Below, piece by piece: positions 5,426 to 30,091 of a DNA stretch of 43,508 nucleotides. The stretch is from Candidatus Dormiibacterota bacterium (lineage in GTDB: Bacteria; Chloroflexota; Dormibacteria; Dormibacterales; Dormibacteraceae). The position numbers were made by a program, and so were the translations under genes. The stretch covers positions 1 to 43,508 of the forward strand of contig DATEGL010000170.1 in the NCBI GenBank assembly GCA_035280145.1. Direction: 5' to 3'. The notes under the pieces are model-generated. The model had not been told where the DNA came from and did not search any database. It saw only the letters and a program-made list of their open reading frames with translations. Numbering within the stretch: position 1 is the first letter of the stretch; each line of letters starts with the position of its first letter.

Positions 5426-6019
5426 CTAGCGCGAGCCGACTGCCAGCACGTAGCGGTGATGGATCGCGAATTCCTCCCAGTGCTCGATCTCAAACTCGGC
5501 CGCCATCGCTGAGCGTATGACCTCCGCCGGCCGCGCGTATGAGCCGCGGTCGTAACGCCACAGCACGCGGCTGCGCAGGCGGTCGGGGTCCAGGATCGCA
5601 TCGAGGAACACGAGGCGCCCGCCATGCCGGAGCAGGCGAGCGCTTTCGCTAAACAGCAGCGGAAGAGCGCGGTCGTCGATATGGTGCGACACCGCCTTGC
5701 ACACCACGAGGTCGATGCTGTGGCTGAGGAGTGGAACGCGGGTGGCATCCCCGATGAGCGGTGTGCCGCTTGAATGCTTGGCCCGAAAGCCCTTCAGCTT
5801 GAGGGGGTCGTTGTCCAGGCAAATATATGCGGCGCCTACCGGCCACAGCTCCGGGGCGAGGCCGGTCCCGCCGCCAATGTCCACCAGGCGCTCCACTGGC
5901 GGGAGCTCGGCGAGCCGCCGGGCGACCCGGCGATTCACCTCGGCTACTCCGGCCACCGCCTGCAGCGCGTCATAGACACGCGGCCGCGCCGCCACCCTGT
6001 GCAGGACATCAGTCAGCAT
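5426..6019 (-). CDS. Class I SAM-dependent methyltransferase
   Basis: Motif I LVDIGGGTG; Methyltransf_11/25-like layout. The start overlaps the upstream gene by 11 nt. Confidence 0.75.
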   Translation of the reverse strand: MLTDVLHRVAARPRVYDALQAVAGVAEVNRRVARRLAELPPVERLVDIGGGTGLAPELWPVGAAYICLDNDPLKLKGFRAKHSSGTPLIGDATRVPLLSHSIDLVVCKAVSHHIDDRALPLLFSESARLLRHGGRLVFLDAILDPDRLRSRVLWRYDRGSYARPAEVIRSAMAAEFEIEHWEEFAIHHRYVLAVGSR

Positions 6020-6827: not shown

Positions 6828-6834
6828 ATGTTCC

Positions 6835-12959: not shown

Positions 12960-14847
12960 CGGTCACCGGGCGGCCCTCTCGCGTGCGTGCGATGCGGGGC
13001 TCTTGTCGGGCGTGGGGTGGATGGTCGCCGGCGGCTGTCTTGAGAGTCCGGACCAGGTCATCGGTGCGACCTTCGCGCGCAAGCTCCTCGAGCCGGTTGA
13101 CCGTCCAGTCGAGGTCCTCTGGGCTGAAGCTCTGAGGCGAGACCACCTCCATGATCGCCGGGTGATCGGTCGGGCGCGAGCCTTCGTCCGGGCCAAGCAG
13201 CTCCTCGTGCAGCCGCTCGCCTGGGCGAAGTCCGGTGTAAACGATCTCGATATCGGGACCCGGACGCAGGCCTCGCGCGCGTACCAGGGCCTCGGCCAGG
13301 CTGACGATCTTCATCGGCTCCCCCATGTCGAGCATGTATACGTGGCCGGGCTTGGCGACGGTCAGCGTCTTGATCACGAGTGACACCGCCTCGCGGATTG
13401 TCATCATGTAGCGAGTCATCTCGGGGTGGGTGATCGTGACGGGGCCACCCTGCTCGATCTGCCGCTCGAACAGCGGGACCACGCTGCCCCGGCTGCCGAC
13501 GACGTTGCCGAACCGCACGGCCCAGCACGTCATCTCACCGCGCCACCCGAGGATCATCTGCTCGCACAGTCGCTTCGTGCATCCCATCACCGAGTGACGG
13601 GCCACGGCCTTGTCGGTCGAGACGAGGATGAAGCTCTTCACGCCGCCGGCTTCGGCGCACCGCAGTGTGTTGTAGGTGCCGATCACGTTGGTGACGACTG
13701 CCTGGGCGGGGTGCATCTCCATCATCGGCACGTGCTTGTAAGCGGCGGCGTGGAACACGACTTCAGGCCGCTCCTCGGCAAAGACCCGCAGCAGCTGCTC
13801 ACGGTCGGTGATCGAGATCAGCGCTTCGCGGACGTCGATCGAGCTGCCCATGCGCAGCTCCTCGGTGATGTCGAAGAGCCCGCTCTCGTTGTTGTCGAGC
13901 GCTACGAGCCGTCGGGGCTCCAGGCGCGCGAGCAGACGGCACAGCTCCGAGCCGATCGAGCCTGCGGCGCCGGTGACCAGCACGGTCTTGCCCGCAACCC
14001 GATCCCTCGCCTGCTCGATCTCAAGCTCGCGATGCGTCCGGCCCACCAGGTCATCGGCGGAAAGCTGGCGGAGTCTGGTGCCGTGCTGGCGGTGCATCCA
14101 GTGGTCGGCCGCGGGAACGATGAACAGAGGCAGGCCCGCCTGCAGGCAGGCGTCGAACATTTTCTTGTCGGCAGGCTGGGAATCACCGCTCAGGACGAAT
14201 GCAACTCCGTCGGCCTCGACCGACTTGAGGAGATGCGGCAGGTCGTCCGAGTGGCCGACGATTGGCACCCCGAGCACCGTGTGATTGAGCTGGCGCTGGT
14301 CGGTGGTCACGATGGCCACCGCCTGCCAATCCGCGCTTGGAGACTGGACAAGCTCCTTTACCGCAGGGTGCGAGGCGGAGCTGGCCACGATGAGCAGCCG
14401 GCTGCCCGTTGCGGGAGCGCGGGATAGCAAACGCGGCAGCAGGCGAAAGATCCCGATTCCCATCAGCGCTGCCGGTGCTGCCAGCAGCGGCACACCGATG
14501 CGGAACGCACGGTCGTCGCCGGGCAGGGCCCAGTTGGCCAGAAAGATGAGCAGAGCGGCCTCAGCGACCGCGAACGCGGTGGCGATCGCGTCATGTATGC
14601 CGGCGACTTTCCAGATCCGGCGGTACAGCTTGAAGTGTGCTTCGGCCGCGCCGAGGGCCAAAACGACGAACGCAACGGAGAGAACGAGGATCCTGCGCGA
14701 CTGGGCGGTGGTGATGATCCGGCCGCCGTAATTCAACTGCTGGAACGCCTCGAGTGCGACCCAGAAGATCACGACTTCGATCACGAAACCAGGCCCGTAG
14801 CGTTGCAAGTTGCGGACCTGGTGAACGAGCCAGGGGGCGACCGTCAC
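12949..14847 (-). CDS. Membrane-anchored CapD/PglF/WbpM-type nucleotide-sugar 4,6-dehydratase
   Basis: 632 aa. N-terminal TM segments, then the Rossmann motif KTVLVTGAAGSIGSELCRLL, AAYKHVPMME (YxxxK) and FILVSTDKAV. Confidence 0.85.
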   Translation of the reverse strand: MTVAPWLVHQVRNLQRYGPGFVIEVVIFWVALEAFQQLNYGGRIITTAQSRRILVLSVAFVVLALGAAEAHFKLYRRIWKVAGIHDAIATAFAVAEAALLIFLANWALPGDDRAFRIGVPLLAAPAALMGIGIFRLLPRLLSRAPATGSRLLIVASSASHPAVKELVQSPSADWQAVAIVTTDQRQLNHTVLGVPIVGHSDDLPHLLKSVEADGVAFVLSGDSQPADKKMFDACLQAGLPLFIVPAADHWMHRQHGTRLRQLSADDLVGRTHRELEIEQARDRVAGKTVLVTGAAGSIGSELCRLLARLEPRRLVALDNNESGLFDITEELRMGSSIDVREALISITDREQLLRVFAEERPEVVFHAAAYKHVPMMEMHPAQAVVTNVIGTYNTLRCAEAGGVKSFILVSTDKAVARHSVMGCTKRLCEQMILGWRGEMTCWAVRFGNVVGSRGSVVPLFERQIEQGGPVTITHPEMTRYMMTIREAVSLVIKTLTVAKPGHVYMLDMGEPMKIVSLAEALVRARGLRPGPDIEIVYTGLRPGERLHEELLGPDEGSRPTDHPAIMEVVSPQSFSPEDLDWTVNRLEELAREGRTDDLVRTLKTAAGDHPPHARQEPRIARTREGRPVTDGP

Positions 14848-14917
14848 CCTAAGAGTTTCGCAAATAGACCCCCCGGACCGGAAAACGGATGTACACCGCG
14901 CTCGCCGCTCGCTCTGG

Positions 14918-16204
14918 CTACCCCGGGCCTCCGGTCAGTGTCGCGTCGGCCTCTCGCAGGGGAGCCGCCTTGTGGGCCCGGGCCGGCGAGGTGATCAGAT
15001 ACACGTCGAAGAGCGTCAGGATCGCGAGGACATACAGCGCAGCATCGAATGCGAGCACCGCGGCGGCGTTCGGATTGGTGAGCGTGTTCAGCACCAACAG
15101 CGCCACCACGAAGCCCACAAATGAGATCAGCATGTTCCGCGCGTTCATCGGAAAGACGTGGCCCGCGTCGATCACGCTGCGGTGCGTGATGTAAATGCCC
15201 CACGGCACCGCTCCGATCAGGGTCAGCCTCAGCCAGGTGACCCCGCCGGCGAAGCTCGGCCCGAGGTAGATCGAAACGATCGGCGTGGCGAACAACTCGA
15301 AGAAGGCAACCGCAAACACGGTCCCGGCAAAGGTGAGACCGCCCACCTGCATGATCTGCGTGCGCAGCCGGGCCACGGAGCCGGCCGCGAACATGCGCGA
15401 GGCGGCGGGCAGGAGAACGAAGCTGATCGGCGTCAGGCCGGAGCCCACCATGCTGAGGGCGGCCACGCCGAAGGCGACGATGCCGGCGACGCGGATGTCC
15501 GCTGTATGCGCGACGAGCAGGCTCGGCATGGCAAACAGAGTCAGCTGGATGAAGTCGCCGGGAACACGCGGCACGCCAAATCGCGCGAGCTCGCGGATTC
15601 GCCCGGGGACTTGCGTGAAGCTCATGGGCAGACGGACCAGCGGAATCAGCGAGACGACGATCCAGCCCACGCCGATCGCGCTCATGATCTCGGCCACAGA
15701 GTGCCCGAAGAACTTGATGGCGATCAGCGGCATCAAACCCTGGTTGACGGCCATCAGGAGGTTGGCCCACTGGATCTTGGTCAGGCCGCGCAGGTATCCA
15801 TACGCGACCACGTGGAGCGCCCCACCGAGCAGGACCACCGGCATCGCCAGGACAAGGTCGTTGTAGGCGGGTGAACCAAAGAACAGGTGCGCCCAGAACC
15901 GGCTGAAGAGGAGCAGCACGGCCGAGACGATCCCGACGCCGGCGAACATGATCACCAGCCCGCCCGGGGCGTACGCCGCGAACCGCGATGATTTCTCGGC
16001 TGCGGCGTATGACACGTAGCGTGCGATGCCGACGTCGAGCCCGAGGACTCCCAGCGGAAGCAAAAGCGACAGAGTTCGCCGCGAAAGCGAATACTCACCG
16101 AAGCCCGCGGTGCCCATGCTCGAGGCAACCAGGCGGAACGCGAGCAGGTAGCAGGCGATCACGAAGCCTTCGGTGATGAAAGTGGTCACGTAATCGCGCC
16201 TCAT
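14918..16204 (-). CDS. Wzx-like oligosaccharide flippase (MOP/polysaccharide biosynthesis protein family)
   Basis: 428 aa, about 12 hydrophobic segments, and an N-terminus typical of the family (FITEGFVIACYLLAFRLVASSMGTAGFGEYSL). ATGA overlap with the GT4 gene. Confidence 0.65.
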   Translation of the reverse strand: MRRDYVTTFITEGFVIACYLLAFRLVASSMGTAGFGEYSLSRRTLSLLLPLGVLGLDVGIARYVSYAAAEKSSRFAAYAPGGLVIMFAGVGIVSAVLLLFSRFWAHLFFGSPAYNDLVLAMPVVLLGGALHVVAYGYLRGLTKIQWANLLMAVNQGLMPLIAIKFFGHSVAEIMSAIGVGWIVVSLIPLVRLPMSFTQVPGRIRELARFGVPRVPGDFIQLTLFAMPSLLVAHTADIRVAGIVAFGVAALSMVGSGLTPISFVLLPAASRMFAAGSVARLRTQIMQVGGLTFAGTVFAVAFFELFATPIVSIYLGPSFAGGVTWLRLTLIGAVPWGIYITHRSVIDAGHVFPMNARNMLISFVGFVVALLVLNTLTNPNAAAVLAFDAALYVLAILTLFDVYLITSPARAHKAAPLREADATLTGGPG

Positions 16205-17421
16205 CGCACAGGCTCCAGTGGCTGGAACGCATCGAGCATCCGATCCGCAAGCCTCGGGATGTTGTGGTGTTCGACCAGGTATTCGCGGCCTCGCCGGCCC
16301 ATGCGCATTCGCTCCTCGGGAGTCAGCGCCGCCAGCTTTTCGATCGCGTCGGCGACTAGCTCGGGTTTGCCGGGCGGAACGCTGAAACCGGCGTCGGCGT
16401 CGCGTACGGGGTCGTACGTCGAGTTGCCGAAGAAGATGATCGGGCGGCCGGCCGCCAGGTAGTCGGTCAGCTTGTTCAAACTGATCCCGAAACGATACAG
16501 GGGCAGGTCGCGCAAGCCGTAGATGAAAGCGTCGGCCTCACCCATCACGCGCGCCACCTCGCGCTTGGGGACTGACGGCCGGAAGTCGACGTTGGTTAAG
16601 CCCATCTTGCCCGCCCGGTCGATGATCGCCTCACGCTCCTGCCCAGAGCCGATCATCACGAACTTAATGTCCTTGCGGTCCCGGGCCTGGAGCACCGAGG
16701 CGCTGTCGAGGATCGTGTCAAGGGCGTTGGCGGCGACGAAACCGCCCAGGAACATGACACGAAAAGGTCGCCGGGGGGCGCCGTCGTAGGGGGCGAGGTC
16801 GTCATAGCGATCCAGCTCGACCCCGTGCGGGATCCAGACGATCTTGGAGCGCGGTACCCCCTGCGCCTCGACGTAGCCGTCGGTGTGCCGCCACAGCATC
16901 ACGATCCGCTCGGCATGGTGGAACAGAAATCGCTCGAGCCGGCGCATCGAGCGGGCAACCAGCCCATTCGGGTTGAGGCGGCCGAAGTCGATCAATGTCT
17001 CGGGCCACAGGTCGGTGACCTCGAAAAAGAAGCGAGCCCGCTTCGCGCCCGCCAGTGCGTACCCGCTGAGGGCGGCGAGCGGATGCACCGAGACACCGAC
17101 CACGATCTCCGGCCGTTCCCGCCGGAAGATTCCGGCTAGCAACGCGAGCATGCTGAATACGGCCATGTTCACGACGCGCCCGAGGTCGTTGCCGCGATAT
17201 GGAGTGCCCCTCACCCAGATATAGCGCACACCTTCGATGTCCTCCCCACGCCAGAGGCGCCAGCCGAGACGCCGCATGGGGCGGAGGTGGTAGTGGCTGA
17301 AGCTGCAGGCGAAAATGGTTGTCGGGTTTCCTTTGGCGACCATCCGTCGCGCGATGTCGAAGCTCCGCGTGGCCAGTCCGTCGGGTGGATCCGCGTAGTG
17401 ATTGACCATCCAGATCCGCAT
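16201..17421 (-). CDS. Glycosyltransferase family 4 (WbuB-like)
   Basis: MRIWMVNHYADPP N-terminus, and a C-terminal GT-B region with ADAFIYGL...LNKLTDYLAAGRPIIF. Confidence 0.8.
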   Translation of the reverse strand: MRIWMVNHYADPPDGLATRSFDIARRMVAKGNPTTIFACSFSHYHLRPMRRLGWRLWRGEDIEGVRYIWVRGTPYRGNDLGRVVNMAVFSMLALLAGIFRRERPEIVVGVSVHPLAALSGYALAGAKRARFFFEVTDLWPETLIDFGRLNPNGLVARSMRRLERFLFHHAERIVMLWRHTDGYVEAQGVPRSKIVWIPHGVELDRYDDLAPYDGAPRRPFRVMFLGGFVAANALDTILDSASVLQARDRKDIKFVMIGSGQEREAIIDRAGKMGLTNVDFRPSVPKREVARVMGEADAFIYGLRDLPLYRFGISLNKLTDYLAAGRPIIFFGNSTYDPVRDADAGFSVPPGKPELVADAIEKLAALTPEERMRMGRRGREYLVEHHNIPRLADRMLDAFQPLEPVR

Positions 17422-17440
17422 CGGACGGGTCGACCTTTCG

Positions 17441-18634
17441 CTACTGATGGGTCGAGATCGACTCCGTCACCTCGACTGCGCCGCGCACGAGATCGATGAG
17501 GATCGGGCTAACCTCGCGGAGGGCGGCGACGTCGAGGTCGCGGTGCTTGAGCGCGATCACCACCGCGTCGAATCGGTCTCCCCGCGGAAGCTCCCTGATC
17601 ACACTCACGTCGGCGGGGAGCTGCGCCGTGTCGACGATCGGGTCGAAGACGACGACGTCATGTTTGGCCGCGAGTCCTCGGGCGAAGGCGAGCGCCGCTG
17701 ATCCGCGGGGATCGGGGTAGTTCGGCTTGTAGGTGGCGCCGACGACGAGCACTCTGCCTCGGCTCACGCCGGCCGATCGGAGCAGACCGCGCAGCTCCTG
17801 GGACACCCCCTCCACGATCCTCTGGTTGCTCGCGACCGCGTCCTGCAGCATTGGCATCTCCAGGCCGTGTTGGTCCGCCGCCTGGAGCAGATAGCGCGGC
17901 ATCGTCGGGATGCATGTTCCCCCGGCGCCAACCCCCGGTTGATGTGCCATGAAAGCGAACGGTTTGGTGGATGCAGCGTCGATCACGTCAGCCGCGGTCA
18001 GGCCGACCCGCCGGCACAGCTCGGCGAACTCGTTGATGAACCCGATGTTCACCAGCCGGAACGCGTTCTCGAGCAGCTTCGACGCCTCGGCTACCTCGAC
18101 GGGATCGACCGGGTAGGTGACCACGCGCGCCTGGTTGTACATCTTGACCGCCATGTCGCGCGCCGCCAGGGTGAGGCCACCGACCACGCGGGGAATCTCG
18201 CCCAGGTCGGTGCCACGGCCAGGATCAAAACGTTCGGGCGCATGCGCGACAACCCGACCGTGTGGTCCGATGCGGGCGGCGAATTCTCGCGTGAAACCGA
18301 TCGGCACCGTGCTCGCGATGACCACGAGACGGTCGGCCACGGGCAGCGATTCGAGGTCGCCGGCGAACTGGTCGAAAGCCGCCATGCTGATCTCGAGCGA
18401 TGGCAGCAGATTGGGGAGACACAGGATCAGGGTCGAGCATCCGGCCAGGTCGCTGACGCGCGACGTCAGGACCGGCTTGAGGTCACTGGTCGCGTACCGG
18501 TGGCCGAGCTCCGAAACGCGCTCTTTCGAAATGTCGTATCCGACGGTGGTGTGACCCGTACGGTGCCACAGCGCAAGCTCCTGCGAACCAATTGTGCCGA
18601 GACCTACGATCCCAATCTGGGCAGGGGATGTCAC
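17441..18634 (-). CDS. UDP-glucose/GDP-mannose dehydrogenase-family nucleotide-sugar 6-dehydrogenase
   Basis: IGIVGLGTIGSQ dinucleotide fold; central AEASKLLENAFRLVNIGFINEFA; catalytic region GGTCIPTMP; C-terminal UDP-binding region LVVGATYKPN. Confidence 0.85.
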   Translation of the reverse strand: MTSPAQIGIVGLGTIGSQELALWHRTGHTTVGYDISKERVSELGHRYATSDLKPVLTSRVSDLAGCSTLILCLPNLLPSLEISMAAFDQFAGDLESLPVADRLVVIASTVPIGFTREFAARIGPHGRVVAHAPERFDPGRGTDLGEIPRVVGGLTLAARDMAVKMYNQARVVTYPVDPVEVAEASKLLENAFRLVNIGFINEFAELCRRVGLTAADVIDAASTKPFAFMAHQPGVGAGGTCIPTMPRYLLQAADQHGLEMPMLQDAVASNQRIVEGVSQELRGLLRSAGVSRGRVLVVGATYKPNYPDPRGSAALAFARGLAAKHDVVVFDPIVDTAQLPADVSVIRELPRGDRFDAVVIALKHRDLDVAALREVSPILIDLVRGAVEVTESISTHQ

Positions 18635-18685: not shown

Positions 18686-19687
18686 TCAGCTCAGGTAGAA
18701 GAACCAATGAGCGTCATACGCGTCATAGCCGGCTGAGCTGCTTGCGTCGCGCACCCAGACCGAGAGCCGGTAATGTCCGGTGGTCTGGCCGCTTGACGTT
18801 GACCAGTTATAGGTGGAGCTGGTCGAATACGGTTGGGCCAGGGTCCACACTCCACCATTGGCGGGCCCGAGGATCCAGAATTCGAACAGCGGGTTCAGAC
18901 AGTCTGGGCTGGACGCGCTGATGGTCACAACCGTCCCGCCGGGCGCGCCGCCAGGCGGTTGGACAGATTCGCTCACCGACGGGCAGCCTGGGGTCAAGTC
19001 GAAATATTCGCTTGCGTCGTATGAGTCGTACGCCGCACTGCTTGTCGTGTCTCGCAGCCAGACCGAGAATCGATATGTCCCTGTCGTTTGCGTGCTCGAG
19101 GTCGCCCAGGAGTAGTAGCTGACCGAGCTGTAGTCCTGCACCATCGTCCAGGCGCCGCCGCTCGCCGGGCCGAGAATCCAGAACCGGTACAGAGGGTGGG
19201 AGCAGACCGCGGGAAGCTGAGCGTTGATTGTGACCGTGGTCCCGTGCATCGATCCAGTGGATGGCGCGGACGAAAGTGAAACTGCGGTGCACTGCGTCAG
19301 CGTGTATAGCAGGGTGTGGTAGGAGTCGTAGCTCAGCGTGCTGGCGCTGTCCCTCGCCCACACCGAGAACTCGTAGGTTCCCGCCGCAAGCGAGGCGGTC
19401 GGCCAGGAGTACGAAGAGCTGGTCGAGTACGTCTGAACCACGGACCATGTGCCACCGGGTGGCAGGAGCCAGAACTGATACAGCGGATTCGGGTTCGGGC
19501 AGCCGGACGCAACGGCCCAGACGGTTACCACAGGGCCGACCGTCGTCGGTGAGGGCGGGATGGCGTTGATCGTGGTCGCGGTGCAGCCGCTGCCTGCTCC
19601 GGCTGTCAGGACGGCAGTGTGATGTGAACCGGGAACGAAGGCGAGACCGAGACACCCGAGCGCAGCCGCGGCCAGGCGAGCCCTCAA
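18686..19687 (-). CDS. Secreted head-less protein made of a signal peptide plus three triple-tyrosine repeats
   Basis: MRARLAAAALGCLGLAFVPG signal-like start, then three ~100-aa repeats (coding repeats at about 18689-19585). Ends exactly at the last repeat. Confidence 0.8.
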   Translation of the reverse strand: MRARLAAAALGCLGLAFVPGSHHTAVLTAGAGSGCTATTINAIPPSPTTVGPVVTVWAVASGCPNPNPLYQFWLLPPGGTWSVVQTYSTSSSYSWPTASLAAGTYEFSVWARDSASTLSYDSYHTLLYTLTQCTAVSLSSAPSTGSMHGTTVTINAQLPAVCSHPLYRFWILGPASGGAWTMVQDYSSVSYYSWATSSTQTTGTYRFSVWLRDTTSSAAYDSYDASEYFDLTPGCPSVSESVQPPGGAPGGTVVTISASSPDCLNPLFEFWILGPANGGVWTLAQPYSTSSTYNWSTSSGQTTGHYRLSVWVRDASSSAGYDAYDAHWFFYLS

Positions 19688-19691
19688 TTCG

Positions 19692-22073
19692 TCAGGTCAG
19701 ATTGAAGTACTCGTTCGCGGCGTACGCGTCGTAGGAGGCAGAGCTGCTCGCATCGCGCACCCACACCGAGAAGCGGTACGTGCCTTTGGTCTGGGTGGCG
19801 CTGGTGTTCCAGGTATAGGTGTTGCCTGTGCCGTATGGCAGCACCAGCGTCCACACACCTCCGCTGGCGGGACCCAGGATCCAGAACTGGTAGCGAGGAT
19901 TGGGGCAGCCGGAGCTCGTTGCGGTGATCGTCACGGTCGTCCCTGCGGGGGCGTTGAGTGGCGGACTGGAGGTCTCGCCAACCGAGGGGCAACCCGGAGT
20001 CAGGTTGTAATAGGCACTCGCGTCGTAGGCGTTGTAGGCAGCAGTGCTGCTCGCATCGCGGAGCCAGACCGAGAAGCGATAGGTGCCCGTCGTCTGGGTA
20101 GGCGACGTGTTCCAGGTGTACGTGTTGCTCGCGCTATAGTCCTGGACCATCGTCCACACCCCACCGTTGGCGGGACCGAGGATCCAGAACCTGTACGTCG
20201 GGCTGCTGCATCCGCTCGTGCTCGTCGCGGTGAGGGTGACGACCGTGCCGCGCATGGCTGCGCTAGGCGGTGAGTCGGTGAGAGCCACCGACGCGCATTG
20301 GGACAGGGTGATGAACGCCGTCTTGTAGACGTCGTACTGCGTCGTGCTGCCGCTGTCTCTGGCCCAGACCGAAAACTCGTAGCTGCCCGCGGCGAGCCCA
20401 GTGGTGTTCCACGAGTAACTTGCATTCGTCGAATACGGCTGCACGATCGACCAGGCGCCGCCGGGCGGCAGGAGCCAGAACTGGTAGGAGGGGCTGGCGT
20501 GCGGGCAGCCGGTGGCGGTCCCGGTGACCGCGACGGTGGTGCCGATTGTCGCCTCACCGGGAGCGGTGACCGAGAGTCCAGAACACCCGGACAGCAGCGT
20601 GAACGCCCGTGCCGTGGTGCCGGAGGCCACAAAGATCTGGCCGCCGGCCGTGGCCGGTGTCGTGAAGTGATTGGCAGAGAAGCCGGCCGTTTGCAGGATC
20701 TTCGTTCCGGTCGCGGCATCGAAGCCATAAAGCCCGGTCCCGTTTGTGTCGACGACGAACACGACGCCTCCGGCCACTATGGGCGGGCCGAAAGTCGCGG
20801 CGGCCGTATGCCACGAAGGGGATGCGCACGTCGCGTCGCAGTTCGTGAACGAAGGGGTGGCGGGATAGACCTTCAACGCGACCAGGCCCTGTCCGTCACA
20901 CGACAAGTAGACGTATGGAGCCGCATAGGCGATCGAGCCGAACGTCGCGTCGTGGTGGTTGCCGTGGCACGCATCCACCGGGCCGTACGTCGAGGGTGCG
21001 GGTGTGGGGTAGAGCTGGCCGTCGATCCCACCCAGGTTCTGCGGATTGACGAGAAAGCCGTAACCTGCTTTGCCTGTCGCGAATGCCAGCGTCGGACTGA
21101 TCAGCACGGTGCTGATCGAACCGAGGTCCTCGTCGGGGCAAGACCAGACGTCGTGCCAGTCCTGAGGTGCGAAGTAGTCCTGCAAGCCAAGTGTTGGGGA
21201 GAGCCCGACGACGGCGTCGTTGAGGTTGTCATAGGAGCTCGGGCAATCACCGTTGCCGGTGGTCACGAGCACCTTGCCGGTCGAGTCGTCCACCACAACG
21301 CCGCCCGCCGCCCACATGCCACTCCCGCTACCGGGCGTCTCGAACTCCTCGAGCGGGAGGTTGTTCCCGGTCGTGCCGGCGCCGAACACGTAGCCGTGGT
21401 AATTCCCGCAGTCGCCGAAGCGGCCGCCCATCGGGATGTAGACGTGGCTCCGGTCGGCAGACAGGGCGAGCGCGCCACGCTCCTGCTGGATGGTCCAGTC
21501 GAAGTCCGCGCTGCTGACGGCGGAGTAGACGACCACAGCCCCGGTGTTGAGGTCGAGCCCAAACATGTAGTAAGAAAGCTCGAGGTGCCGGAAGGCCACG
21601 ACGTAGATGCGCCCGCCGACTGTGTCGATCACCGGCGTGCCGAGGATGCCGGCTGAGGAGACGTTGCCGCATGCCCAGCCGCTCGTCTGAGGGGCGCCCA
21701 GGTTCGTTGACCACGCCACCGTGCCGTCGGCCTGGTGGAGCGCATACACCGTGTTGTTGAGCGTCGCGACGTAGACAAAGCCGTTGTAGATGAGTGGCTC
21801 GACGTATGTCTGGCCGTCGAGGGCGGTCGTCCATCCGGCACCGATCCCTGTGACAGTTGACTGCGAGCTGTCGAAGCCGGTGTGGGCGTTGTCGCGGTGG
21901 TACACGGTCCAGGAGCCGTTTGCGACCTGGGCGGAGTCAGGCGCAGCCGGAGCACGGCTCGCCGCCGAGACTGGTCCAGCCGGCGCGAGTGCGATCGCCA
22001 AGAAGCTGATGGCGGCCGCAGCGAGGCGAGCTCTCACCACGTCGTAATCATGAACGCTGCAGGTGGCCCTCAT
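19692..22073 (-). CDS. Secreted PQQ-like (BamB-type) beta-propeller protein fused to three triple-tyrosine repeats
   Basis: Propeller-type blades (NGFVYVATLNNTVYALHQADGTVAWS, GGRIYVVAF, GGVVFVVDTNGTGLYGFDAATGT). Three C-terminal repeats at about 19695-20585. I place the start at the ATG at 22073 (MRATC...) or the GTGs at 22040/22037 (VVRARLAAAA...), not the track start at 22196. Confidence 0.8.
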   Translation of the reverse strand: MRATCSVHDYDVVRARLAAAAISFLAIALAPAGPVSAASRAPAAPDSAQVANGSWTVYHRDNAHTGFDSSQSTVTGIGAGWTTALDGQTYVEPLIYNGFVYVATLNNTVYALHQADGTVAWSTNLGAPQTSGWACGNVSSAGILGTPVIDTVGGRIYVVAFRHLELSYYMFGLDLNTGAVVVYSAVSSADFDWTIQQERGALALSADRSHVYIPMGGRFGDCGNYHGYVFGAGTTGNNLPLEEFETPGSGSGMWAAGGVVVDDSTGKVLVTTGNGDCPSSYDNLNDAVVGLSPTLGLQDYFAPQDWHDVWSCPDEDLGSISTVLISPTLAFATGKAGYGFLVNPQNLGGIDGQLYPTPAPSTYGPVDACHGNHHDATFGSIAYAAPYVYLSCDGQGLVALKVYPATPSFTNCDATCASPSWHTAAATFGPPIVAGGVVFVVDTNGTGLYGFDAATGTKILQTAGFSANHFTTPATAGGQIFVASGTTARAFTLLSGCSGLSVTAPGEATIGTTVAVTGTATGCPHASPSYQFWLLPPGGAWSIVQPYSTNASYSWNTTGLAAGSYEFSVWARDSGSTTQYDVYKTAFITLSQCASVALTDSPPSAAMRGTVVTLTATSTSGCSSPTYRFWILGPANGGVWTMVQDYSASNTYTWNTSPTQTTGTYRFSVWLRDASSTAAYNAYDASAYYNLTPGCPSVGETSSPPLNAPAGTTVTITATSSGCPNPRYQFWILGPASGGVWTLVLPYGTGNTYTWNTSATQTKGTYRFSVWVRDASSSASYDAYAANEYFNLT

Positions 22074-23325
22074 CGGTCGCTCTGCCTCGGAGCAGCGCCA
22101 GAGCCACGATCTCCAACGCCGCCAATGCCCAGAATTCAAGGGCCAGATCGTTGTTGAAGTAGGGCGTGTCGACCAGGCCGTGGACGACGATGGCAACGAA
22201 GCTCATCGAGGTCCCCCACAGCAGCGGGCGCGCAAACCCGATTGCCCGACCGAATCCCTGCCATCCGCGCCACAGCAGCGTGGCCATGAGAGCGACGAAA
22301 GCGATGAGCCCGAGCAGCCCGAGCTCGACCCACATCGCAAGAAAAATGTTGTGCGGGTAGAGTTCCGGTGTGCGGCCCGCCAGGTACTGCCGCATGATCG
22401 GGGCGTAGTTGCGAACCCCGGCGCCGAAGATTGGATGGTCGCGAAGCATCACCAGCGTGTCGCTCCAGATGCGCACGCGGCCTTCGAAAGTGTTGCCCGA
22501 ATAATTCGGATCGAGCTGCTGGGAGAGGCGCTCCTGGACCCAGGGAATGCGCGAGATCGCCAGGCCGCTCACAGATGCGCCGAGCAGCAATGCGACCTTG
22601 AGCCTCAGTTGAGGCATCGTGATCACCGCGCCAATCGCCATCACAGCGAGGGTGAGCAGGCCGGCCCGAGAGAGCGTCAACACCATCGACGCCAGCAGAA
22701 TCGGGAGGCAGATCACGGCGACGATTCGGTCGCGCCGTTCCGATGCGTAGAGAGCGAAGCCTGCGGCGATCGCAATCGGGGGCTCAAGGAAAATCGCCAC
22801 CGAGTTGGGACTCGTGTACAGAACCTCTGGGGCGTTGCGGACTCCGATCACGTTGTGATGCGCGAGGTTGTCGGCCCACGCACCCAGGTTCCCGATCGCG
22901 AATGCGGTGGCGCCGACGGCAAACCCGAGCAGCACCGTGCGAGCTTCATTCGGCGACCCCAGAAGATCCACTGCGACGTAAAAGAGCAGCGCCGGCTCGA
23001 TGAAGTACGCGCGATAGAGCCCAAGCGCGCCGATATGGTCCGGTGAGACAAGGATGCCGATCCCGCCTGCAATTAGAAGGAGAGCAAGAGGAATCTCGAG
23101 CCCCGTCCGGCTCGCGCGCCAGCTGCCGGCGCGGACGCGGCCCGCGGCGTAAAGCGCGATCGTCAGCAGGACCAGGATCTCGAGAACTGTCGTGGGGAAC
23201 GGGCCAACGCGGAACCGAACCACGTACAGCGGCATGCACCCCACCGTGATGGCGAGCGCCCAGCGGCTGTAGCGAATCAGGGACGTTGCCGACACTGTGC
23301 CCGTGCGTTGGGGTGCGGCCACCAT
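22048..23325 (-). CDS. O-antigen ligase / polymerase / O-oligosaccharyltransferase family (Wzy_C domain) membrane protein
   Basis: 425 aa, polytopic, with a LTLSRAGLLTLAVMAIGAV block and a large loop before the HPHN-containing region, as in Wzy_C proteins. Confidence 0.7.
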   Translation of the reverse strand: MVAAPQRTGTVSATSLIRYSRWALAITVGCMPLYVVRFRVGPFPTTVLEILVLLTIALYAAGRVRAGSWRASRTGLEIPLALLLIAGGIGILVSPDHIGALGLYRAYFIEPALLFYVAVDLLGSPNEARTVLLGFAVGATAFAIGNLGAWADNLAHHNVIGVRNAPEVLYTSPNSVAIFLEPPIAIAAGFALYASERRDRIVAVICLPILLASMVLTLSRAGLLTLAVMAIGAVITMPQLRLKVALLLGASVSGLAISRIPWVQERLSQQLDPNYSGNTFEGRVRIWSDTLVMLRDHPIFGAGVRNYAPIMRQYLAGRTPELYPHNIFLAMWVELGLLGLIAFVALMATLLWRGWQGFGRAIGFARPLLWGTSMSFVAIVVHGLVDTPYFNNDLALEFWALAALEIVALALLRGRATDEGHLQRS

Positions 23326-23374
23326 ATGGTCCGCGAGGCATCATAGGGACGCGGCGAGCAGTCCTGCCGCGGCC

Positions 23375-25423
23375 TCAGGTCAGCGAGAAGTACTGGGTGT
23401 TGTAGACGTCGTAGCTGGAAGGGCTGTTCGCGTCCTTTGCCCACACAGAGAAGCGATATGTGCCGGTCGCGAGACCGGTCGTGTTCCACGTGAAGGAGCC
23501 GGCGTTCGAATAATCGCGCACCATAGTCCACTGTCCGTTGGGTGCCTGCACCCAGAAGCGATAGGTCGGCGTTGCGCATCCCGTCGCCGACCCAGTGATT
23601 GTCACGCCGGCGCCAACACTCGCCTGGCTGGGCGGTGACGAGGAGATGCTTACAGCAGCGCACGCAGGCTGGTTCACCTGCAGGTACTGGGTGGTGTAGG
23701 CGTCGTACTGCGCCGAGCTGCTTGCATCTCGCACCCATACGGACAGGCGATATGTCCCCGTGGGCTGGCCCGTGGTGTCCCAGTTGAAGGTCGGGCTCGT
23801 GGAGTAATCCTGTTCCATCGTCCACGTGCCGTTGGGCGGAAGGAGCCAGAACCGGTAAGACGGGTTGCTACAGTCCGAGGCAGCCGCGCCGACTTTCACT
23901 GTGCTCCCCACCGACGCTGCGGTGGGCGCGGAGATGGACACTCCGGTGCATGGGACCACCGCCAGCGTGTAGTAGAAAGTGCTGTACTGGTCGTACGTAG
24001 AGGGGCTGGAGGTGTCCCTGGCCCAGACGGAGAAGCGGTACGTTCCCGTCGCTTGGCCGGTCGTGTTCCACGAATAGCTGGCGGCCGTCGAGTAGTCCTG
24101 GGCGATGGCCCACACGCCGCCCGGCGGTTGGATCCAGAACCTGTACTGCGGGTTGGGACAGCCACCGGCCGAACCGCTGACGGCGACCTGCGATCCGACA
24201 GACGCCTGCGAATCGGGTGAGGCCGACACGGTGAGGCCGGTGCACGGCGTGGTCGTCAGGGTGTAGTACGCACTGTTCCAGCCGTCGTAGCTGGCCGGGC
24301 TCGCTGCGTCACGCGCCCACAGCGAGAAGCGGTACAGGCCTCCGACGGGACCGTTCTGCCAGGTGAATGTTCCGGACGCCGAGTAGTCCTGGGCCACGTT
24401 CCAGGTTCCGCCCGGCGGTTGGATCCAGAACCTGTACAGCGGGTTGGGGCACGAGCTTGATCCGGCCGTGAGCGTCACGGTCGTGCCGGGTGATTGTGGC
24501 GACGCCGGCAATGCGGAGAGGCGGACCCGGTTGCATCGACCCGGATAGACCGTATTCGAGGTCAGGCTGTCGGTGCCATCGGCGTTGGTGGCGCTGACTG
24601 TGAACGTGTAGGCGGTCTCGTTCTGCAATCCGGTGAAGGTCGCGCTGGTCGCGGTGGGAGGCAGGGTCATCGTTGCGTTGCCCGGGTGCGCGGTCACGGT
24701 GTAGCCAGAGATCTGTGTGTGGCATGTATGAGCGGGGTTCCAGGTGACAGTCGCGCTCCGGTTCCCGTTGGTGGCAGCGGGGTCGGGCCCGAGATGTGGC
24801 GGGCTTGGCAGGGCGCTCGCGTAGCTCTGGGCGATGCTCATGTAGTAGGACCAGTCCCAGTACGGTCCTGGGTCGGTGTGGTGGTCCTCACCGCCGAACA
24901 GGCCGGGGTTGTTTGGGTCCGGGACTTCGTCGTGCCCGATCACGTGGTTCCGGTCCATCGGCACTCCCCAACGCGAGCAGATCGAAGCCGCGAGGTGGGC
25001 GCTCGCCTGGTACATCGCTGTCGTGTAGTAGCCGGGTGTCCAGGCGAAGCCCTCGTGCTCGATTCCGATCGCGCGCGTGTTGTAGTCCCAGTTGCCGGCG
25101 TGCCACGCGATGTCGTGCTCCTGGACCATCTGGGTGATGTCGCCCTGGTCGGAAACCACGTAATCCGCTGAGGCGGCGAAGGTGGGGTCCTGGAACTCGG
25201 CTATCGCGCTCTCGTAGCTCCCTTCGGTGTCGTGGATGATGATCATGTCGACCGGGTGGTCATGCGGACGGTTCCCGTAGCTGTAGTTGGCGGGGTCGGC
25301 AGGAACCCAGCTGGCAAGCGGATAGTCGGGAGTGCTCCTGAGCGCGGCGCTCGCGCCAACCGGCGCCGCCGAAGCCAGGACCACCATCGCAGGCACCACG
25401 CAAATAGGGATGAGCCGGCGCAT
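23375..25423 (-). CDS. Secreted N-acetylmuramoyl-L-alanine amidase (Amidase_2/PGRP) - FN3 - four triple-tyrosine repeats
   Basis: MRRLIPICVVPAMVVLASAAPVGASA signal. Amidase_2 block IIIHDTEGSY...ADYVVSDQGDITQMVQEHDIAWHAGNWDYNTRAIGIEHEG. FN3-like segment SATVTWNP...ISGYTVTA...TAYTFTVSATNADG. Four repeats at about 23378-24535. The track start TTG at 25450 is an alternative. Confidence 0.85.
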   Translation of the reverse strand: MRRLIPICVVPAMVVLASAAPVGASAALRSTPDYPLASWVPADPANYSYGNRPHDHPVDMIIIHDTEGSYESAIAEFQDPTFAASADYVVSDQGDITQMVQEHDIAWHAGNWDYNTRAIGIEHEGFAWTPGYYTTAMYQASAHLAASICSRWGVPMDRNHVIGHDEVPDPNNPGLFGGEDHHTDPGPYWDWSYYMSIAQSYASALPSPPHLGPDPAATNGNRSATVTWNPAHTCHTQISGYTVTAHPGNATMTLPPTATSATFTGLQNETAYTFTVSATNADGTDSLTSNTVYPGRCNRVRLSALPASPQSPGTTVTLTAGSSSCPNPLYRFWIQPPGGTWNVAQDYSASGTFTWQNGPVGGLYRFSLWARDAASPASYDGWNSAYYTLTTTPCTGLTVSASPDSQASVGSQVAVSGSAGGCPNPQYRFWIQPPGGVWAIAQDYSTAASYSWNTTGQATGTYRFSVWARDTSSPSTYDQYSTFYYTLAVVPCTGVSISAPTAASVGSTVKVGAAASDCSNPSYRFWLLPPNGTWTMEQDYSTSPTFNWDTTGQPTGTYRLSVWVRDASSSAQYDAYTTQYLQVNQPACAAVSISSSPPSQASVGAGVTITGSATGCATPTYRFWVQAPNGQWTMVRDYSNAGSFTWNTTGLATGTYRFSVWAKDANSPSSYDVYNTQYFSLT

Positions 25424-25529
25424 AAACAACCTTGTTAACGAAACGCCCAAGAGAACCCTGTATTAATACCCCGGACCGAGAGTCGCAGATTCTAAGAGCC
25501 AAAACTTAGAGCCGGTTAAACTCGCGAAA

Positions 25530-27324: not shown

Positions 27325-28311
27325 TTGACGCTCCCTCGACCTAGCATCTCGGCGGTCGTGCCCGCCTACAACAGCGAGCTGTCGCTGCCGGAGCTGGTCC
27401 GCCGGCTCCATTCAGTGCTTGACCCCATCGCCTCGGACTACGAGCTGATCCTCGTCGATGACGGCAGCCGGGACGGCACATGGCCCGTAATCGAGACCCT
27501 CGCGCGCGACAACTCGTGGGTGAAGGGTGTGCGCCTGCGGCGAAATTACGGGCAGTACAACGCGGTTCTTTGCGGCATCAGGCACGCGTGTCACGAGTTG
27601 ATCGTGACGCTCGACGATGACCTTCAGCATCCACCAGAGGAGATTCCCAAGCTGCTCGACAGACTCACGCCCGACATCGACGTCGTGTACGGTACGGCGC
27701 AGCGCGAGACGCACGGTCTCTGGCGTGATTTGGCGAGCCAGGTGACCAAGCTCGCGCTCCAATCCGCGATGGGCGCGCCCATCGCGCGTAAGGCCGGGCC
27801 ATTCCGTCTGTTCAGGACTGGGATCCGGGATGCATTCGCGGGTTACGACGGACCCTACGTCGCGATCGACGCCCTTTTGACGTGGGGCACGACCCGATTC
27901 ACCGCCGTCGACGTCAAGCACGCCCCGCGAACCGCCGGCAAGTCCAACTACACGTTTCGCAAGCTCGTGCTGCATGCGATCAACATGATCACGAGCTTCA
28001 GCATCTTGCCTTTGCAGGTCGCGAGCCTGACCGGATTCTTCTTCACGGTCGTGGGCACACTCGCCCTCATCTATGTGGTGGCCAAGTACCTCATCGAGGG
28101 AGGCAGCGTGCCGGGGTTCTCCTTCCTAGCGTCGACGATCGCCATCTTCTCTGGAGCGCAGCTCTTCTCGCTTGGCATCATCGGCGAGTACCTGGCCCGC
28201 ATTCACACGCGCACCATGCAGCACCCGAGCTACACGATCGGCGACATGACGCCGGCCGCCCGCGCCCTGAGCAACGGCGAGCCGGTGGTGGGGGCGGCGG
28301 CGAGCCGGTAG
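27325..28311 (+). CDS. GT2 polyprenyl-phosphate glycosyltransferase (ArnC/GtrB/Ppm1-like)
   Basis: SAVVPAYNSE, ELILVDDGSRDGT and LDDDLQHPPEEIP, plus two C-terminal TM helices. TTG start. Confidence 0.8.
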   Translation: MTLPRPSISAVVPAYNSELSLPELVRRLHSVLDPIASDYELILVDDGSRDGTWPVIETLARDNSWVKGVRLRRNYGQYNAVLCGIRHACHELIVTLDDDLQHPPEEIPKLLDRLTPDIDVVYGTAQRETHGLWRDLASQVTKLALQSAMGAPIARKAGPFRLFRTGIRDAFAGYDGPYVAIDALLTWGTTRFTAVDVKHAPRTAGKSNYTFRKLVLHAINMITSFSILPLQVASLTGFFFTVVGTLALIYVVAKYLIEGGSVPGFSFLASTIAIFSGAQLFSLGIIGEYLARIHTRTMQHPSYTIGDMTPAARALSNGEPVVGAAASR

Positions 28312-28313
28312 TT

Positions 28314-29333
28314 GTGAGCGTCCTGGACCCGCGGCGCAGCATTGCGGTCGCCGGCAGGCGGGTGCTCGTCACCGGCGGCCTCGGCTTCCTGGGGTTCAAC
28401 CTGGTCCGCGCCCTGACAGCCGCCGGGGCGCGGGTGAGCGTCCTGAGCCGCTCGTGGCCGCCGCCGCCTGCGACCGTCGAGTCGATGCTCGAAGAGGCGG
28501 AGTTCTTTCACGGCGACATTCGGGATCCCGCTCTTGTCGACGAGGCGGTCATCGGGCGCGATCTCATCTATCACATGGCAGGCAAGTCGGGACCGGCGGC
28601 AAGCAACGTCTCGCCGATGGAAGACCTCGAAGTGAACGCTCGCGGCACGCTGATCCTGCTCGAAGCGTGCCGGCGATTGAACCCCAAGGTGAAGATCGTG
28701 TTTCCAAGCTCGCGCCTTGTCTACGAGGCGAGCCCGTCGCAGCCGACCGGCGAGTCAGCGCCGACCGGCCCGCGCTCGGTGTACGGCGTACACAAATGGG
28801 CGGCGGAGCAGTACCTGCTTCTCTATCAGCGCCTGTACGGATTGCGGGTCAGCATCCTGCGCATCACCAACCCGTATGGCCCGTTTCAGCGGCCGGAGCA
28901 GAACCGATACGGCGTCGTCAACTGGTTCATCCACCAGGCGATGCAAAACCGCGCGCTCACCGTGTACGGCGGCGGTGAGCAGCTGAGGGACTACATCCAC
29001 GTCGACGATGTGGTCGATGCATTGCTGGTGGCGAGCGGCGCGCCAGAGGCGGATGGCATGATCTTCAACGTCGGCTGCGGGCGAGGAGTCCCATTCCTGG
29101 AGATGGCCGAGATCGTCGTCAAGGCGGCAGGCCGAGGCTGGATCGAGCACGTCGCTTGGCCGCGTGACGCGGCGGTCGTGGAAACCGGCGATTTCATCGC
29201 GGACATATCGCTGATCAAAGAGCGCCTCGGGTGGAGACCAGCAATCCCACTCGAGTCGGGGATCGAGGATGTCGTCCAGCGTTACGCCCAGCTCGAGTTT
29301 GGGCCGGACCTCGGCCCGGGATTGCTCGCCTGA
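28314..29333 (+). CDS. NAD-dependent nucleotide-sugar epimerase/dehydratase (SDR, extended)
   Basis: RVLVTGGLGFLGFNLVRAL, SSRLVY and YGVHKWAAEQY (YxxxK). GTG at 28314, right after the GT2 stop. The upstream part of track ORF 27882.. is out-of-frame overlap. Confidence 0.85.
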   Translation: MSVLDPRRSIAVAGRRVLVTGGLGFLGFNLVRALTAAGARVSVLSRSWPPPPATVESMLEEAEFFHGDIRDPALVDEAVIGRDLIYHMAGKSGPAASNVSPMEDLEVNARGTLILLEACRRLNPKVKIVFPSSRLVYEASPSQPTGESAPTGPRSVYGVHKWAAEQYLLLYQRLYGLRVSILRITNPYGPFQRPEQNRYGVVNWFIHQAMQNRALTVYGGGEQLRDYIHVDDVVDALLVASGAPEADGMIFNVGCGRGVPFLEMAEIVVKAAGRGWIEHVAWPRDAAVVETGDFIADISLIKERLGWRPAIPLESGIEDVVQRYAQLEFGPDLGPGLLA

Positions 29334-30085
29334 AGCGCGAGTACTACCGCGAGTATCGCCAGGTGGAGGATGTCCACTGGTGGTTTGTCGGACGGCGCCG
29401 CATCCTGCTCCAGCTACTCGATCGCTACCTCGGCCAGAACGGATCGCACGAGCGCCGGATCCTCGACGTCGGCTGCGGCACCGGGACGATGCTGACCCAC
29501 CTCGCGATGCTCGGAAAGGCCGAGGGCGTTGATATCGATAGCGAGGCGGTCGGTTACTGCCAGGAGCGCGGCCTCGACAACGTCCACCTGGGAGAGGCGA
29601 CGCGGCTGCCGTTCGCGGGCGACTCCTTCGACCTCGTGACGGCGCTCGACGTGGTCGAGCACCTGGACGATGACACGGCGGCATTTCGAGAGATGCGCAG
29701 GGTGCTCCGGCCTGGCGGCCTCCTTCTGGTCACGGTCCCCGCCCATCGGTTCCTCTGGGGAGACCAGGACGAGGTCAACCTGCACAAGCGACGCTACGCG
29801 GCCCCGGAGCTGCGCAACCGGCTGGCCTCGAGCGGGTTCGACGTGTTGCGTCTCTCCTACATGAACGCGCTCCTGTTCGCGCCCATCGCGGTTATCAGAC
29901 TGCTGCGCCGCATCGAACATCGCGTGCGACCTCGTATTCCGCATGAGTCGGACTTCAGGTACCCTGCCCCGCGACCTTTGAACTTCGTCCTCGGCCACGT
30001 CTTCGGCGCCGAAGGCAGGATCCTGCGTCGGGCCGACATCCCGTTTGGCGTGTCGATAGTGGCTCTAGCGCGGAAGGCGCGATGA
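29329..30085 (+). CDS. Class I SAM-dependent methyltransferase (HWWF N-terminal motif family)
   Basis: EDVHWWFVGRRRIL, ILDVGCGTG and DVVEHLDDD, paralogous in layout to 6009-6827. Start uncertain: CTG at 29329 in a CTGA junction, or GTG at 29231 with a 103-nt overlap. Confidence 0.75.
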
Positions 30086-30091
30086 TCGGCG

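Follow-up and report, generated by a model that had tools for sequence, protein, structure and literature searches.

Five proteins encoded in a 43,508-nucleotide stretch of a Candidatus Dormiibacterota genome (contig DATEGL010000170.1 of assembly GCA_035280145.1, positions 1 to 43,508 of the forward strand; hereafter the window) end in tandem copies of a two-cysteine repeat. Comparison with relatives indicated that the array is a lineage-expanded, interchangeable and promiscuous C-terminal tail carried by many extracellular heads. The best reading of these arrays, which we hold tentatively and do not rate as probable, is that they would bind a wall polymer and thereby retain enzymes on the cell surface.

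Five proteins in the window end in tandem two-cysteine repeats

Translation of the window, combined with a motif and coordinate script, detected 17 complete repeat units and one partial unit in five open reading frames (ORFs; Table 1), the partial unit lying at the cut 5' end of the window in ORF 2-667(+). A preliminary description of this DNA, made from the letters alone, had counted at least 2, 5, 3, 3 and 4 copies in the five genes (17 in total), and translation confirmed these numbers. Units were 91-102 amino acids (aa) long and each of the 17 contained two Cys residues. The consensus proposed earlier described a real repeat, but its C-x(20-25)-G-C element was slightly short, the spacing measured between the two Cys residues being 23-29 residues and mostly 28. 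Alignment of the window units showed that C1, C29, P32, W45, Y51, W59 and G67 are invariant. Pairwise identity between units was only 32-69%, and judged by this divergence the units are an old, maintained repeat. The same values excluded a recent duplication or a low-complexity artefact. An assembly artefact was also excluded, since a second sample gave the same locus by independent assembly (L002; related loci are given L numbers and related proteins P numbers).

Each of the five proteins terminates inside the last strand of its last unit, in agreement with the earlier claim that the proteins stop exactly where the repeat ends. The units of ORF 2-667 were the most divergent of the set (32-45% identical to the others). 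The first complete unit of this ORF (71-376) had a 6-residue insertion after the YRYW strand and was devoid of the conserved SVW-x-R segment, reading VVHVRQ at this position.

The repeat belongs to the Y_Y_Y family and is predicted to fold as an Ig-like module

Four of the five window proteins matched the Pfam family Y_Y_Y (PF07495) with scores of 41, 39, 86 and 87 bits, the last being that of the GH18 protein, against a gathering threshold of 26.6 bits. When units were searched in isolation, 11 of the 17 matched Y_Y_Y at E<=0.01 and the first listed unit alone scored 29.3 bits; 45 of 50 metagenomic relatives also matched the family. The 2-667 fragment gave no Pfam match as a whole protein. 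It was matched by a hidden Markov model (HMM) of the repeat (2 units) and, partially, by NF010681. By profile score, the repeat is a member of a known Pfam family. The resemblance to Y_Y_Y noted in the preliminary description can thus be raised to membership (39-87 bits against the 26.6-bit cut-off), and the term "undescribed module" used there was wrong at the level of the domain family. The three Tyr residues that give the family its name were conserved over 565 units (Y34 in 85%, Y51 in 72% and Y69 in 89%). The Pfam model spans only residues ~31-88 of the unit; the N-terminal third, with both Cys residues, falls outside it.

Structure prediction with AlphaFold2 modelled a single unit as an eight-strand, Ig-like beta-sandwich with a predicted local distance difference test score (pLDDT) of 95.9. 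For the three units of the headless protein (18686-19687), the pLDDT was 88 and the predicted template modelling score (pTM) 0.51. Because the pTM was this low despite the high pLDDT, the modules would be well folded with an uncertain mutual orientation, like beads on a string with short linkers. Cys1 is located just ahead of strand A and Cys29 just past strand B. Since these two sites are neighbours in an Ig-like sandwich, a Cys1-Cys29 disulfide staple is likely in each modelled module. When the 17-unit profile was compared with PDB sequences nothing significant was found, the best matches being coronavirus main proteases (E 0.03), which were taken as noise.

The arrays are found at the C-terminus of exported proteins with different heads

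The preliminary description had listed the heads as Amidase_2 with FN3, a PQQ-like propeller, GH18 and none. Pfam scores bore this out, with 69 bits for GH18, 53 bits for PQQ_2, 112 bits for Amidase_2 together with 46 bits for fn3, and no head in 18686-19687. A hydrophobicity scan revealed a clear N-terminal hydrophobic signal in three of the array proteins. The headless protein also has such a signal, provided that the TTG at 19687 is its start codon. In the public annotation this ORF begins 52 codons downstream of the likely TTG (281 instead of 333 aa) and would remove the signal peptide. Use of the TTG start is supported by the existence of a 335-aa orthologue (P0002), which spans 100% of the headless query, and by the signal peptide sequence RARLAAAA, which the headless protein has in common with the neighbouring propeller protein. 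Signals, Pfam heads and array position all supported the earlier proposal, as far as sequence can tell, that the repeat is a real, exported, C-terminal module placed on differing heads.

Neither an LPXTG motif (LP.[TSA]G) nor a C-terminal hydrophobic or transmembrane (TM) segment was detected in the five window array proteins, the latter by hydrophobicity scan. An anchor of the sortase, lipoprotein or TM type was rejected, given that no such motifs were present in the array proteins. SLH, LysM, SH3b, CWB2, CW_binding_1/choline-binding and PG_binding domains gave no Pfam match at E<=1 in the five proteins.

The GH18 head (739-2082) carries, within 'KGVDGVNIDYEG', the motif DGVNIDYE, in which the middle Asp of DxxDxDxE is replaced by Asn while the catalytic Glu and the neighbouring Asp are retained. 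Its closest solved structure is an uncharacterised GH18 protein (4wiw, E 4e-14), and its substrate may be other than chitin, with peptidoglycan and the glycan of the locus as further candidates. The arrays of the headless and propeller genes are collinear paralogues, with 59%, 63% and 64% identity between the first, second and third units of each, respectively. It looks as if the headless gene arose by tandem duplication and then lost the propeller; the duplication would be old, because DNA identity is only 72-74%. Orthologues of the amidase were found in L010, L035, L037, L039 and L042. In four of these orthologues the heads were 68-71% identical and the arrays, made of 3-5 units, 42-48% identical.

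The tail is expanded in one lineage and carried by many heads

The 17-unit profile was searched against 1.84 billion proteins, counted as cluster representatives. The search retrieved 5,322 representatives at E<=1e-3 and 1,244 at E<=1e-30, with 1 to ~21 matched stretches per protein. The array ended at most 15 aa from the C-terminus in 113 of the 142 top relatives (~80%) and in nearly all proteins from the GTDB loci described below. Two Cys residues were present in 496 of the 611 units of these 142 relatives and none in 110.

A scan of GTDB (one genome per species) with near-exact motifs taken from five close units, a design that biases the taxonomy to close relatives, returned 32 loci, mostly from soil metagenome-assembled genomes named "Candidatus Dormiibacterota" or "Chloroflexi bacterium CF_xx". 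The 45 heads found in these loci comprised GH18 (12), CAP (4), BNR-type propellers (3), fn3 (3), PQQ_2 (3), Vgb_lyase (2), Amidase_2 (2), phosphoesterase (2) and Reg_prop (1), plus others. Among the 50 metagenomic relatives, TIG (5), Amidase_2 (4), GH18 (4), Vgb_lyase (4), PKD (4), Amidase_3 (3), RCC1 (3), SpoIID (2) and CAP (2) were found, and source annotations of relatives added proteases and RNase Sa heads. The tail is therefore carried by three unrelated families of peptidoglycan hydrolases (Amidase_2, Amidase_3 and SpoIID). None of the 25 commonest of the 62 Pfam families detected in the 50 relatives was a known wall-binding module.

Contigs with repeat genes were also present in SMAG bins of unrelated organisms: L011, L016 (Nitrosopolaris), L018 (Verrucomicrobiia), L025 (Eisenbacteria) and L034 (Sulfotelmatobacter). 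These off-phylum contigs, including the one from an archaeal bin, are probably mis-binned Dormibacterota contigs, because L011 carries an ilvD gene scoring 757 bits against that of the window. The window derives from a soil metagenome, most likely from an uncultured member of the Dormibacterota. The G+C content of the window was 63-68%, and the median for Ca. Dormibacteria is 66.9% (PMC10608941).

Repeat genes are found in glycan islands of variable content

The co-occurrence of repeat and glycan genes, which the preliminary description had put forward as a check, was positive: of the long contigs sampled, each of which encodes a relative of the headless protein, 9 of 9 had glycan genes at most 10 kb from repeat genes, and about half of the 32 GTDB loci had glycan-synthesis genes beside repeat genes. 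The glycan genes of one of the long contigs (L035) were only a methyltransferase and an asparagine-synthase-type gene. No homologue of the window glycan genes was found in 14 of the 32 GTDB loci, many of which are short contigs. An orthologous glycan operon with an adjoining GH18-repeat gene was present in L021, L022, L026 and L030; Wzy_C and/or ilvD adjoin repeat genes in L011, L024 and L028, and Wzy_C genes were also found in L038 (two copies, one with TPR) and L039. Other contigs encoded Wzm/Wzt (L037, L040, L041), Wzz/WecG/Bac_transf (L043) or several glycosyltransferases (L036). A recurring set of propeller-repeat, headless repeat, Amidase_2-fn3-repeat, GH18-repeat and TIG-repeat proteins was found across these islands.

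The ilvD gene was again a neighbour in L036, L037 and L040 while the glycan genes differed (Wzx/Wzy versus Wzm/Wzt). The region behaves like an island of variable content at a fixed chromosomal site. Many repeat genes form clusters with no glycan gene in view. In L010 (2-17904 of DMCH01000158.1, Chloroflexi bacterium UBA10874), six consecutive genes on the same strand each end in 4-6 units, and the orthologous glycan operon (L022) is found ~15 kb onward on the same contig. In L038, a distant repeat relative (P0116, E 8e-13) is encoded between two Wzy_C genes (7320-9485 and 11819-12997). One of these encodes a 721-aa protein combining Wzy_C and TPR, an architecture reported for the O-oligosaccharyltransferases PglL and WsfB.

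In the window itself, a Wzy_C gene is interleaved with the repeat genes. Its product matched Wzy_C (PF04932) with 73.5 bits (cut-off 31.7) and had at least 7 TM or hydrophobic segments. Scores against specific NCBIfam models were all below cut-off (TfpM 28/600, RfaL 32/277, exosortase-associated O-glycosylation ligase 37 versus 188, and IctB likewise), values that do not exclude O-oligosaccharyltransferase or ligase activity, as sequence separates these subtypes poorly. No TPR domain was detected by Pfam in this protein, and it had no solved relative by sequence. The stop of the Wzy_C gene is overlapped over 26 nucleotides (nt) by the start of the propeller-repeat gene (22048-22073). Because the same pair recurs, adjacent or overlapping, in two other loci (L028, 7090-8481/8231-13153; L039, 1-1002/999-3401), its arrangement suggests translational coupling and a functional pair.

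Surface retention is the tentatively favoured role of the arrays

According to the reading that we tentatively favour, the tail would bind a wall polymer non-covalently and so keep secreted enzymes on the cell surface. The polymer could be either peptidoglycan or some conserved portion of a secondary wall glycopolymer. Binding would probably occur via the face carrying the conserved W37, W74 and R76, and the unit count would determine the valency. Strand alternation in 565 units assigned Y34, F36, Y69, F71 and V73 to the core, and W37 (62%), W74 (60%) and R/K76 (88%) to the outer face. The two strands with W37, W74 and R76 lie side by side in an Ig-like sandwich, and we infer that these residues form a candidate binding patch. 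A wall-targeting module is normally present on the murein hydrolases of single-membrane bacteria, and in the peptidoglycan hydrolases of this family the array occupies the usual position of such a module. Surface retention is favoured because the tail is a free C-terminus rather than a linker, because it sits where single-membrane bacteria place wall-targeting modules on autolysins, because the lineage is reported to be devoid of SLH and CsaB and because the repeat genes live in envelope-glycan islands. The report on SLH and CsaB is a preprint in which Dormibacteraeota fall within a monoderm clade marked by the loss of SLH domains and of CsaB (10.1101/2021.05.31.446380). The export signals of the window proteins, in which no other anchor was detected by Pfam, motif and hydrophobicity scans, also speak for retention.

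Several observations weigh against surface retention. No binding by Y_Y_Y has been reported, and the one experimentally described role of the domain is that of a membrane-proximal spacer and dimerisation element in Bacteroides sensors (PMC5121618). When the model of one unit was compared with the PDB by Foldseek, only generic matches of the Ig, Fab and FN3 kind were returned (best E 3.6e-3, TM-score 0.5-0.66). Weak matches included GbpA and a porphyran-binding carbohydrate-binding module (CBM), and no specific likeness to any known module that binds carbohydrates or walls was seen. With isoelectric points of 4.5-8.3, the arrays range from acidic to near-neutral, unlike charge-driven binders of anionic wall polymers, and the exposure of W37, W74 and R76 rests on strand alternation, not on coordinates. 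Related islands retain the repeat proteins yet exchange their glycan machinery. The arrays also diverge faster than the heads and vary in unit number, a pattern that is a poor fit to a conserved ligand or else reflects relaxed constraint. Since orthology links many of the syntenic loci, these are not independent evidence. The envelope type of the Dormibacterota is itself inferred from genomes: these bacteria are abundant in soils, but we know of no cultured representative, so their envelope is known only from genome inference.

The preliminary description had gone further and assigned synthesis of the ligand to the adjacent Wzy_C gene and 13-gene operon. The islands keep the repeat proteins and swap the machinery: the window has Wzx/Wzy, L037, L040 and L041 have Wzm/Wzt, and L043 has Wzz/WecG. 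This proposal is weakened accordingly, and we regard binding of the operon product by the arrays as possible, but less likely. Because the glycan machinery varies while the repeat proteins stay, a better fit would be peptidoglycan or a conserved linkage unit. Co-location also fits equally well with repeats that are glycosylated as with repeats that bind a glycan.

FN3, PKD and Big domains play a spacer or substrate-binding role on secreted chitinases. The array could similarly be a passive spacer or stabiliser, or a binder of insoluble environmental polymers (chitin, fungal or foreign walls), on enzymes that are released. We regard this explanation as somewhat unlikely. It is in agreement with GH18 being the commonest head (12 of 45 GTDB-locus heads; 4 of 50 relatives), with the generic character of the Ig-like fold and of its matches, the weak ones to GbpA and the porphyran-binding CBM among them, and with the faster evolution and variable unit number of the arrays. 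The three-unit pTM would suggest a flexible chain, and the role described for Y_Y_Y is that of a spacer (PMC5121618). Spacers, however, normally join two parts, whereas the array forms the extreme C-terminus in ~80% of proteins, and proteins made of a signal peptide plus units are conserved (P0002; L035, L037, L040, L041). A single substrate-specific module is ill-suited to amidase, CAP, RNase, phosphoesterase and propeller heads alike, and the recurrent placement in glycan islands is left unexplained. Another explanation, which appears improbable to us, is that the repeats carry the glycan instead of binding it. Wzy_C is the domain present in the O-oligosaccharyltransferases PglL, PilO, WsaB and WsfB. 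The Wzy_C protein of the window would act as an enzyme of the PglL/PilO/WsaB type and transfer a lipid-linked glycan from the neighbouring operon to Ser/Thr residues of the arrays, with the S12-P13 loop between strands A and A' as a candidate site. In that case the island would be a locus for surface glycoproteins, comparable to the S-layer glycosylation (slg) loci known from Geobacillus and Paenibacillus. The Wzy_C gene is indeed wedged among, and overlaps, genes for repeat proteins, and Wzy_C genes flank repeat genes in L024, L028, L030, L038 and L039. One of the L038 proteins bears TPR repeats, as do WsfB and PglL (PMC2943079), although the Wzy_C protein of the window does not. Clusters of the slg type use Wzm/Wzt and can adjoin the gene for their S-layer target (PMC2943079); Wzm/Wzt is found in L037, L040 and L041. 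A MOP-like flippase candidate and a small initiating transferase of the PglC type are encoded in the operon itself, Ser and Thr make up 26-29% of array residues, S12-P13 is conserved in 71% of 565 units, and variable glycan content beside conserved target proteins is the pattern of a glycoprotein locus. On the other hand, the scores of the specific NCBIfam models were far below cut-off, and Wzy_C may be the plain Wzy polymerase of a Wzx/Wzy pathway, as no second candidate for a polymerase was identified. The S-P motif may simply mark a kink in the structure of strand A, and the glycosylation sequon of this lineage is undefined.

It is very unlikely, in our view, that the array proteins, chiefly the headless and TIG-headed ones, self-assemble into an Ig-like surface layer in which enzyme-headed forms co-assemble. 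Headless and TIG-plus-repeat proteins are conserved in the islands, the conserved aromatics that are predicted to be exposed could be lattice contacts, and the Deinococcus S-layer is reported to be formed by interdigitated immunoglobulin arrays (PMC10120038). A unit number ranging from 1 to ~21 is nevertheless unlike a lattice subunit. A broader proposition, which we consider rather doubtful, is that two-Cys arrays are the general surface display of the Dormibacterota, a new class of modules that would bind a wall glycopolymer non-covalently, replace the lost SLH/CsaB and be encoded with, and co-evolve with, a variable island for ligand synthesis beside ilvD. In a related version, the arrays would be the acceptor scaffold of a new general system of protein O-glycosylation, driven by the interleaved Wzy_C enzyme.

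Comparison with known systems

A Bacteroides hybrid two-component sensor (BT4663, PDB 4a2l) resembles the window arrays in belonging to the Y_Y_Y family by HMM, in its Ig-like sandwich and in the residues Y34, Y51 and Y69. In these sensors a single Y_Y_Y domain follows two Reg_prop propellers and precedes a TM helix and kinase domains, whereas the window arrays consist of tandem units with two Cys each at the free C-terminus of secreted enzymes. Reg_prop, HisKA/HATPase and response-regulator domains and a TM helix after the array were looked for by Pfam and hydrophobicity scan in the five window proteins, and none was found. The 17-unit profile did not reach 4a2l, which was also not among the 50 fold matches listed. 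The NCBIfam entry NF010681/PRK14081 ("triple tyrosine motif-containing protein") likewise describes tandem Y_Y_Y units, and it gave partial matches of 28-96 bits to the window proteins; the best of these (96 bits) misses the equivalog cut-off of 842 bits. PRK14081 proteins have tandem Y_Y_Y units without other domains, whereas the window proteins have catalytic heads and two-Cys units. Like the arrays, PRK14081 proteins have no assigned function, and they offer no functional transfer.

In their design, the proteins are similar to those that carry CWB2, SLH, choline-binding repeats, LysM or SH3b: an exported catalytic head is followed by tandem C-terminal modules, amidase and glycosidase heads are used and each genome encodes many paralogues. 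SLH domains bind a pyruvylated secondary cell-wall polymer, and in C. difficile the cwp genes are located near the polymer locus. CWB2 motifs recognise PSII of C. difficile, according to Willing et al. (2015) as reported in PMC5065235. The window arrays have no sequence relationship to these modules and another, Ig-like fold, so that the likeness is one of design and not of membership.

The slg loci (WsaB/WsfB) and the pairs of pilin and TfpO/PilO also place a Wzy_C-family gene beside exported surface proteins and a lipid-linked glycan pathway, and further parallels are the Wzm/Wzt export of related islands and the Wzy_C+TPR protein of L038. They differ in that the window encodes no S-layer protein or pilin and in that glycosylation of the repeats is hypothetical. 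The FN3, PKD and Big domains of chitinases are Ig-like modules on GH18 enzymes, and GH18 is the commonest head here. These domains are usually found between the catalytic domain and a chitin-binding module and are not common to amidases, CAP proteins and propellers, in contrast to the arrays, which are terminal and promiscuous.

A search of the literature on Y_Y_Y, "triple tyrosine" and the envelope or GH18 proteins of Dormibacterota, with many subscription papers outside its reach, returned no description of such arrays. What appears to be new is their deployment, as tandem arrays with predicted disulfides that form a common C-terminal tail of a secretome. Their occurrence mostly in uncultured soil Dormibacterota, and their embedding in variable glycan islands with interleaved Wzy_C genes, also appear to be new. 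If the arrays anchor enzymes, this would be the first function assigned to tandem Y_Y_Y repeats. It would explain how autolysins and exo-enzymes are retained in a lineage reported to be without SLH/CsaB, allow one HMM to predict the surface proteome of the lineage and provide a compact Ig-like module, with a predicted disulfide staple, for display or affinity use. If the repeats are glycosylation acceptors instead, the locus would be an entry to protein glycosylation in Dormibacterota. Both the anchor and the acceptor readings can be tested with recombinant protein, without a culture.

Organisation of the locus and of the adjoining glycan genes

Table 1. Features of the repeat and glycan locus in the window. 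Units are complete repeat units; array coordinates are window positions.
Position	Strand	Feature	Units	Array
2..667	+	3' portion of a gene that is truncated at the window edge; one partial unit in addition to the complete ones	2	~71-664
739..3516	+	Exported GH18 enzyme with C-terminal units	5	2083-3513
3541..5349	+	602-aa membrane protein, ~9 hydrophobic segments, between the GH18 gene and the end of the glycan operon		
5426..18634	-	13-gene surface-glycan operon, Wzx/Wzy type: nucleotide-sugar dehydrogenase; GT4 glycosyltransferase; 10-TM MOP-like flippase candidate; TylF methyltransferase; membrane protein of UDP-GlcNAc 4,6-dehydratase type (Polysacc_synt_2); split transketolase; two DegT aminotransferases; small Bac_transf (PglC-type) initiating transferase; three further methyltransferases		
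18686..19687	-	Headless protein, signal peptide plus units	3	18689-19585
19692..22073	-	Exported PQQ_2/BamB-like beta-propeller with C-terminal units	3	19695-20585
22048..23325	-	Wzy_C-family polytopic membrane protein; candidate O-antigen ligase, polymerase or O-oligosaccharyltransferase		
23375..25423	-	Exported N-acetylmuramoyl-L-alanine amidase (Amidase_2) with fn3 and units	4	23378-24535
27325..31309	+	Second arm of the glycan island, beyond ilvD: GT2 glycosyltransferase, NAD-dependent sugar epimerase/dehydratase, methyltransferase, 8-TM protein		

The gaps of 49, -26, 4 and 51 nt, the interleaved Wzy_C gene and the 13-gene operon were all as the preliminary description had claimed. Seventeen genes follow one another on the minus strand from 25423 to 5426, and none of the 16 gaps between them exceeds 70 nt, which is compatible with a single transcription unit. 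No promoter-like site was detected between 17000 and 26000, and terminator-like sites numbered 2 against 4.1 expected. One weak terminator-like site was located at 18669-18650, between the headless gene and the operon.

One of the two DegT aminotransferases passed the NCBIfam cut-off for dTDP-4-amino-4,6-dideoxygalactose transaminase. The split transketolase, with separate genes for the N-terminal and the pyrimidine/C-terminal parts, lies beside a TylF-type O-methyltransferase (10433-12959), and the whole operon encodes four methyltransferases and two DegT aminotransferases. This gene content is a hint that the operon makes an uncommon amino-dideoxy sugar with heavy modification, perhaps including a two-carbon branch. 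The flippase candidate (14918-16204) has ~10 hydrophobic segments, no significant Pfam match and a weak SpoVB/MOP match.

The 3541-5349 protein gave no family match in domain searches. In the second arm of the island, the 8-TM protein (30092-31309) had no significant Pfam match and scored 33 bits on an NCBIfam family named "cell surface glycopolymer formation". Orthologues of this arm adjoin repeat genes in L022 and L028. The island is set within branched-chain amino-acid genes (ilvD, leuD, leuC, ilvC and a leuA-like gene, 25530-38977).

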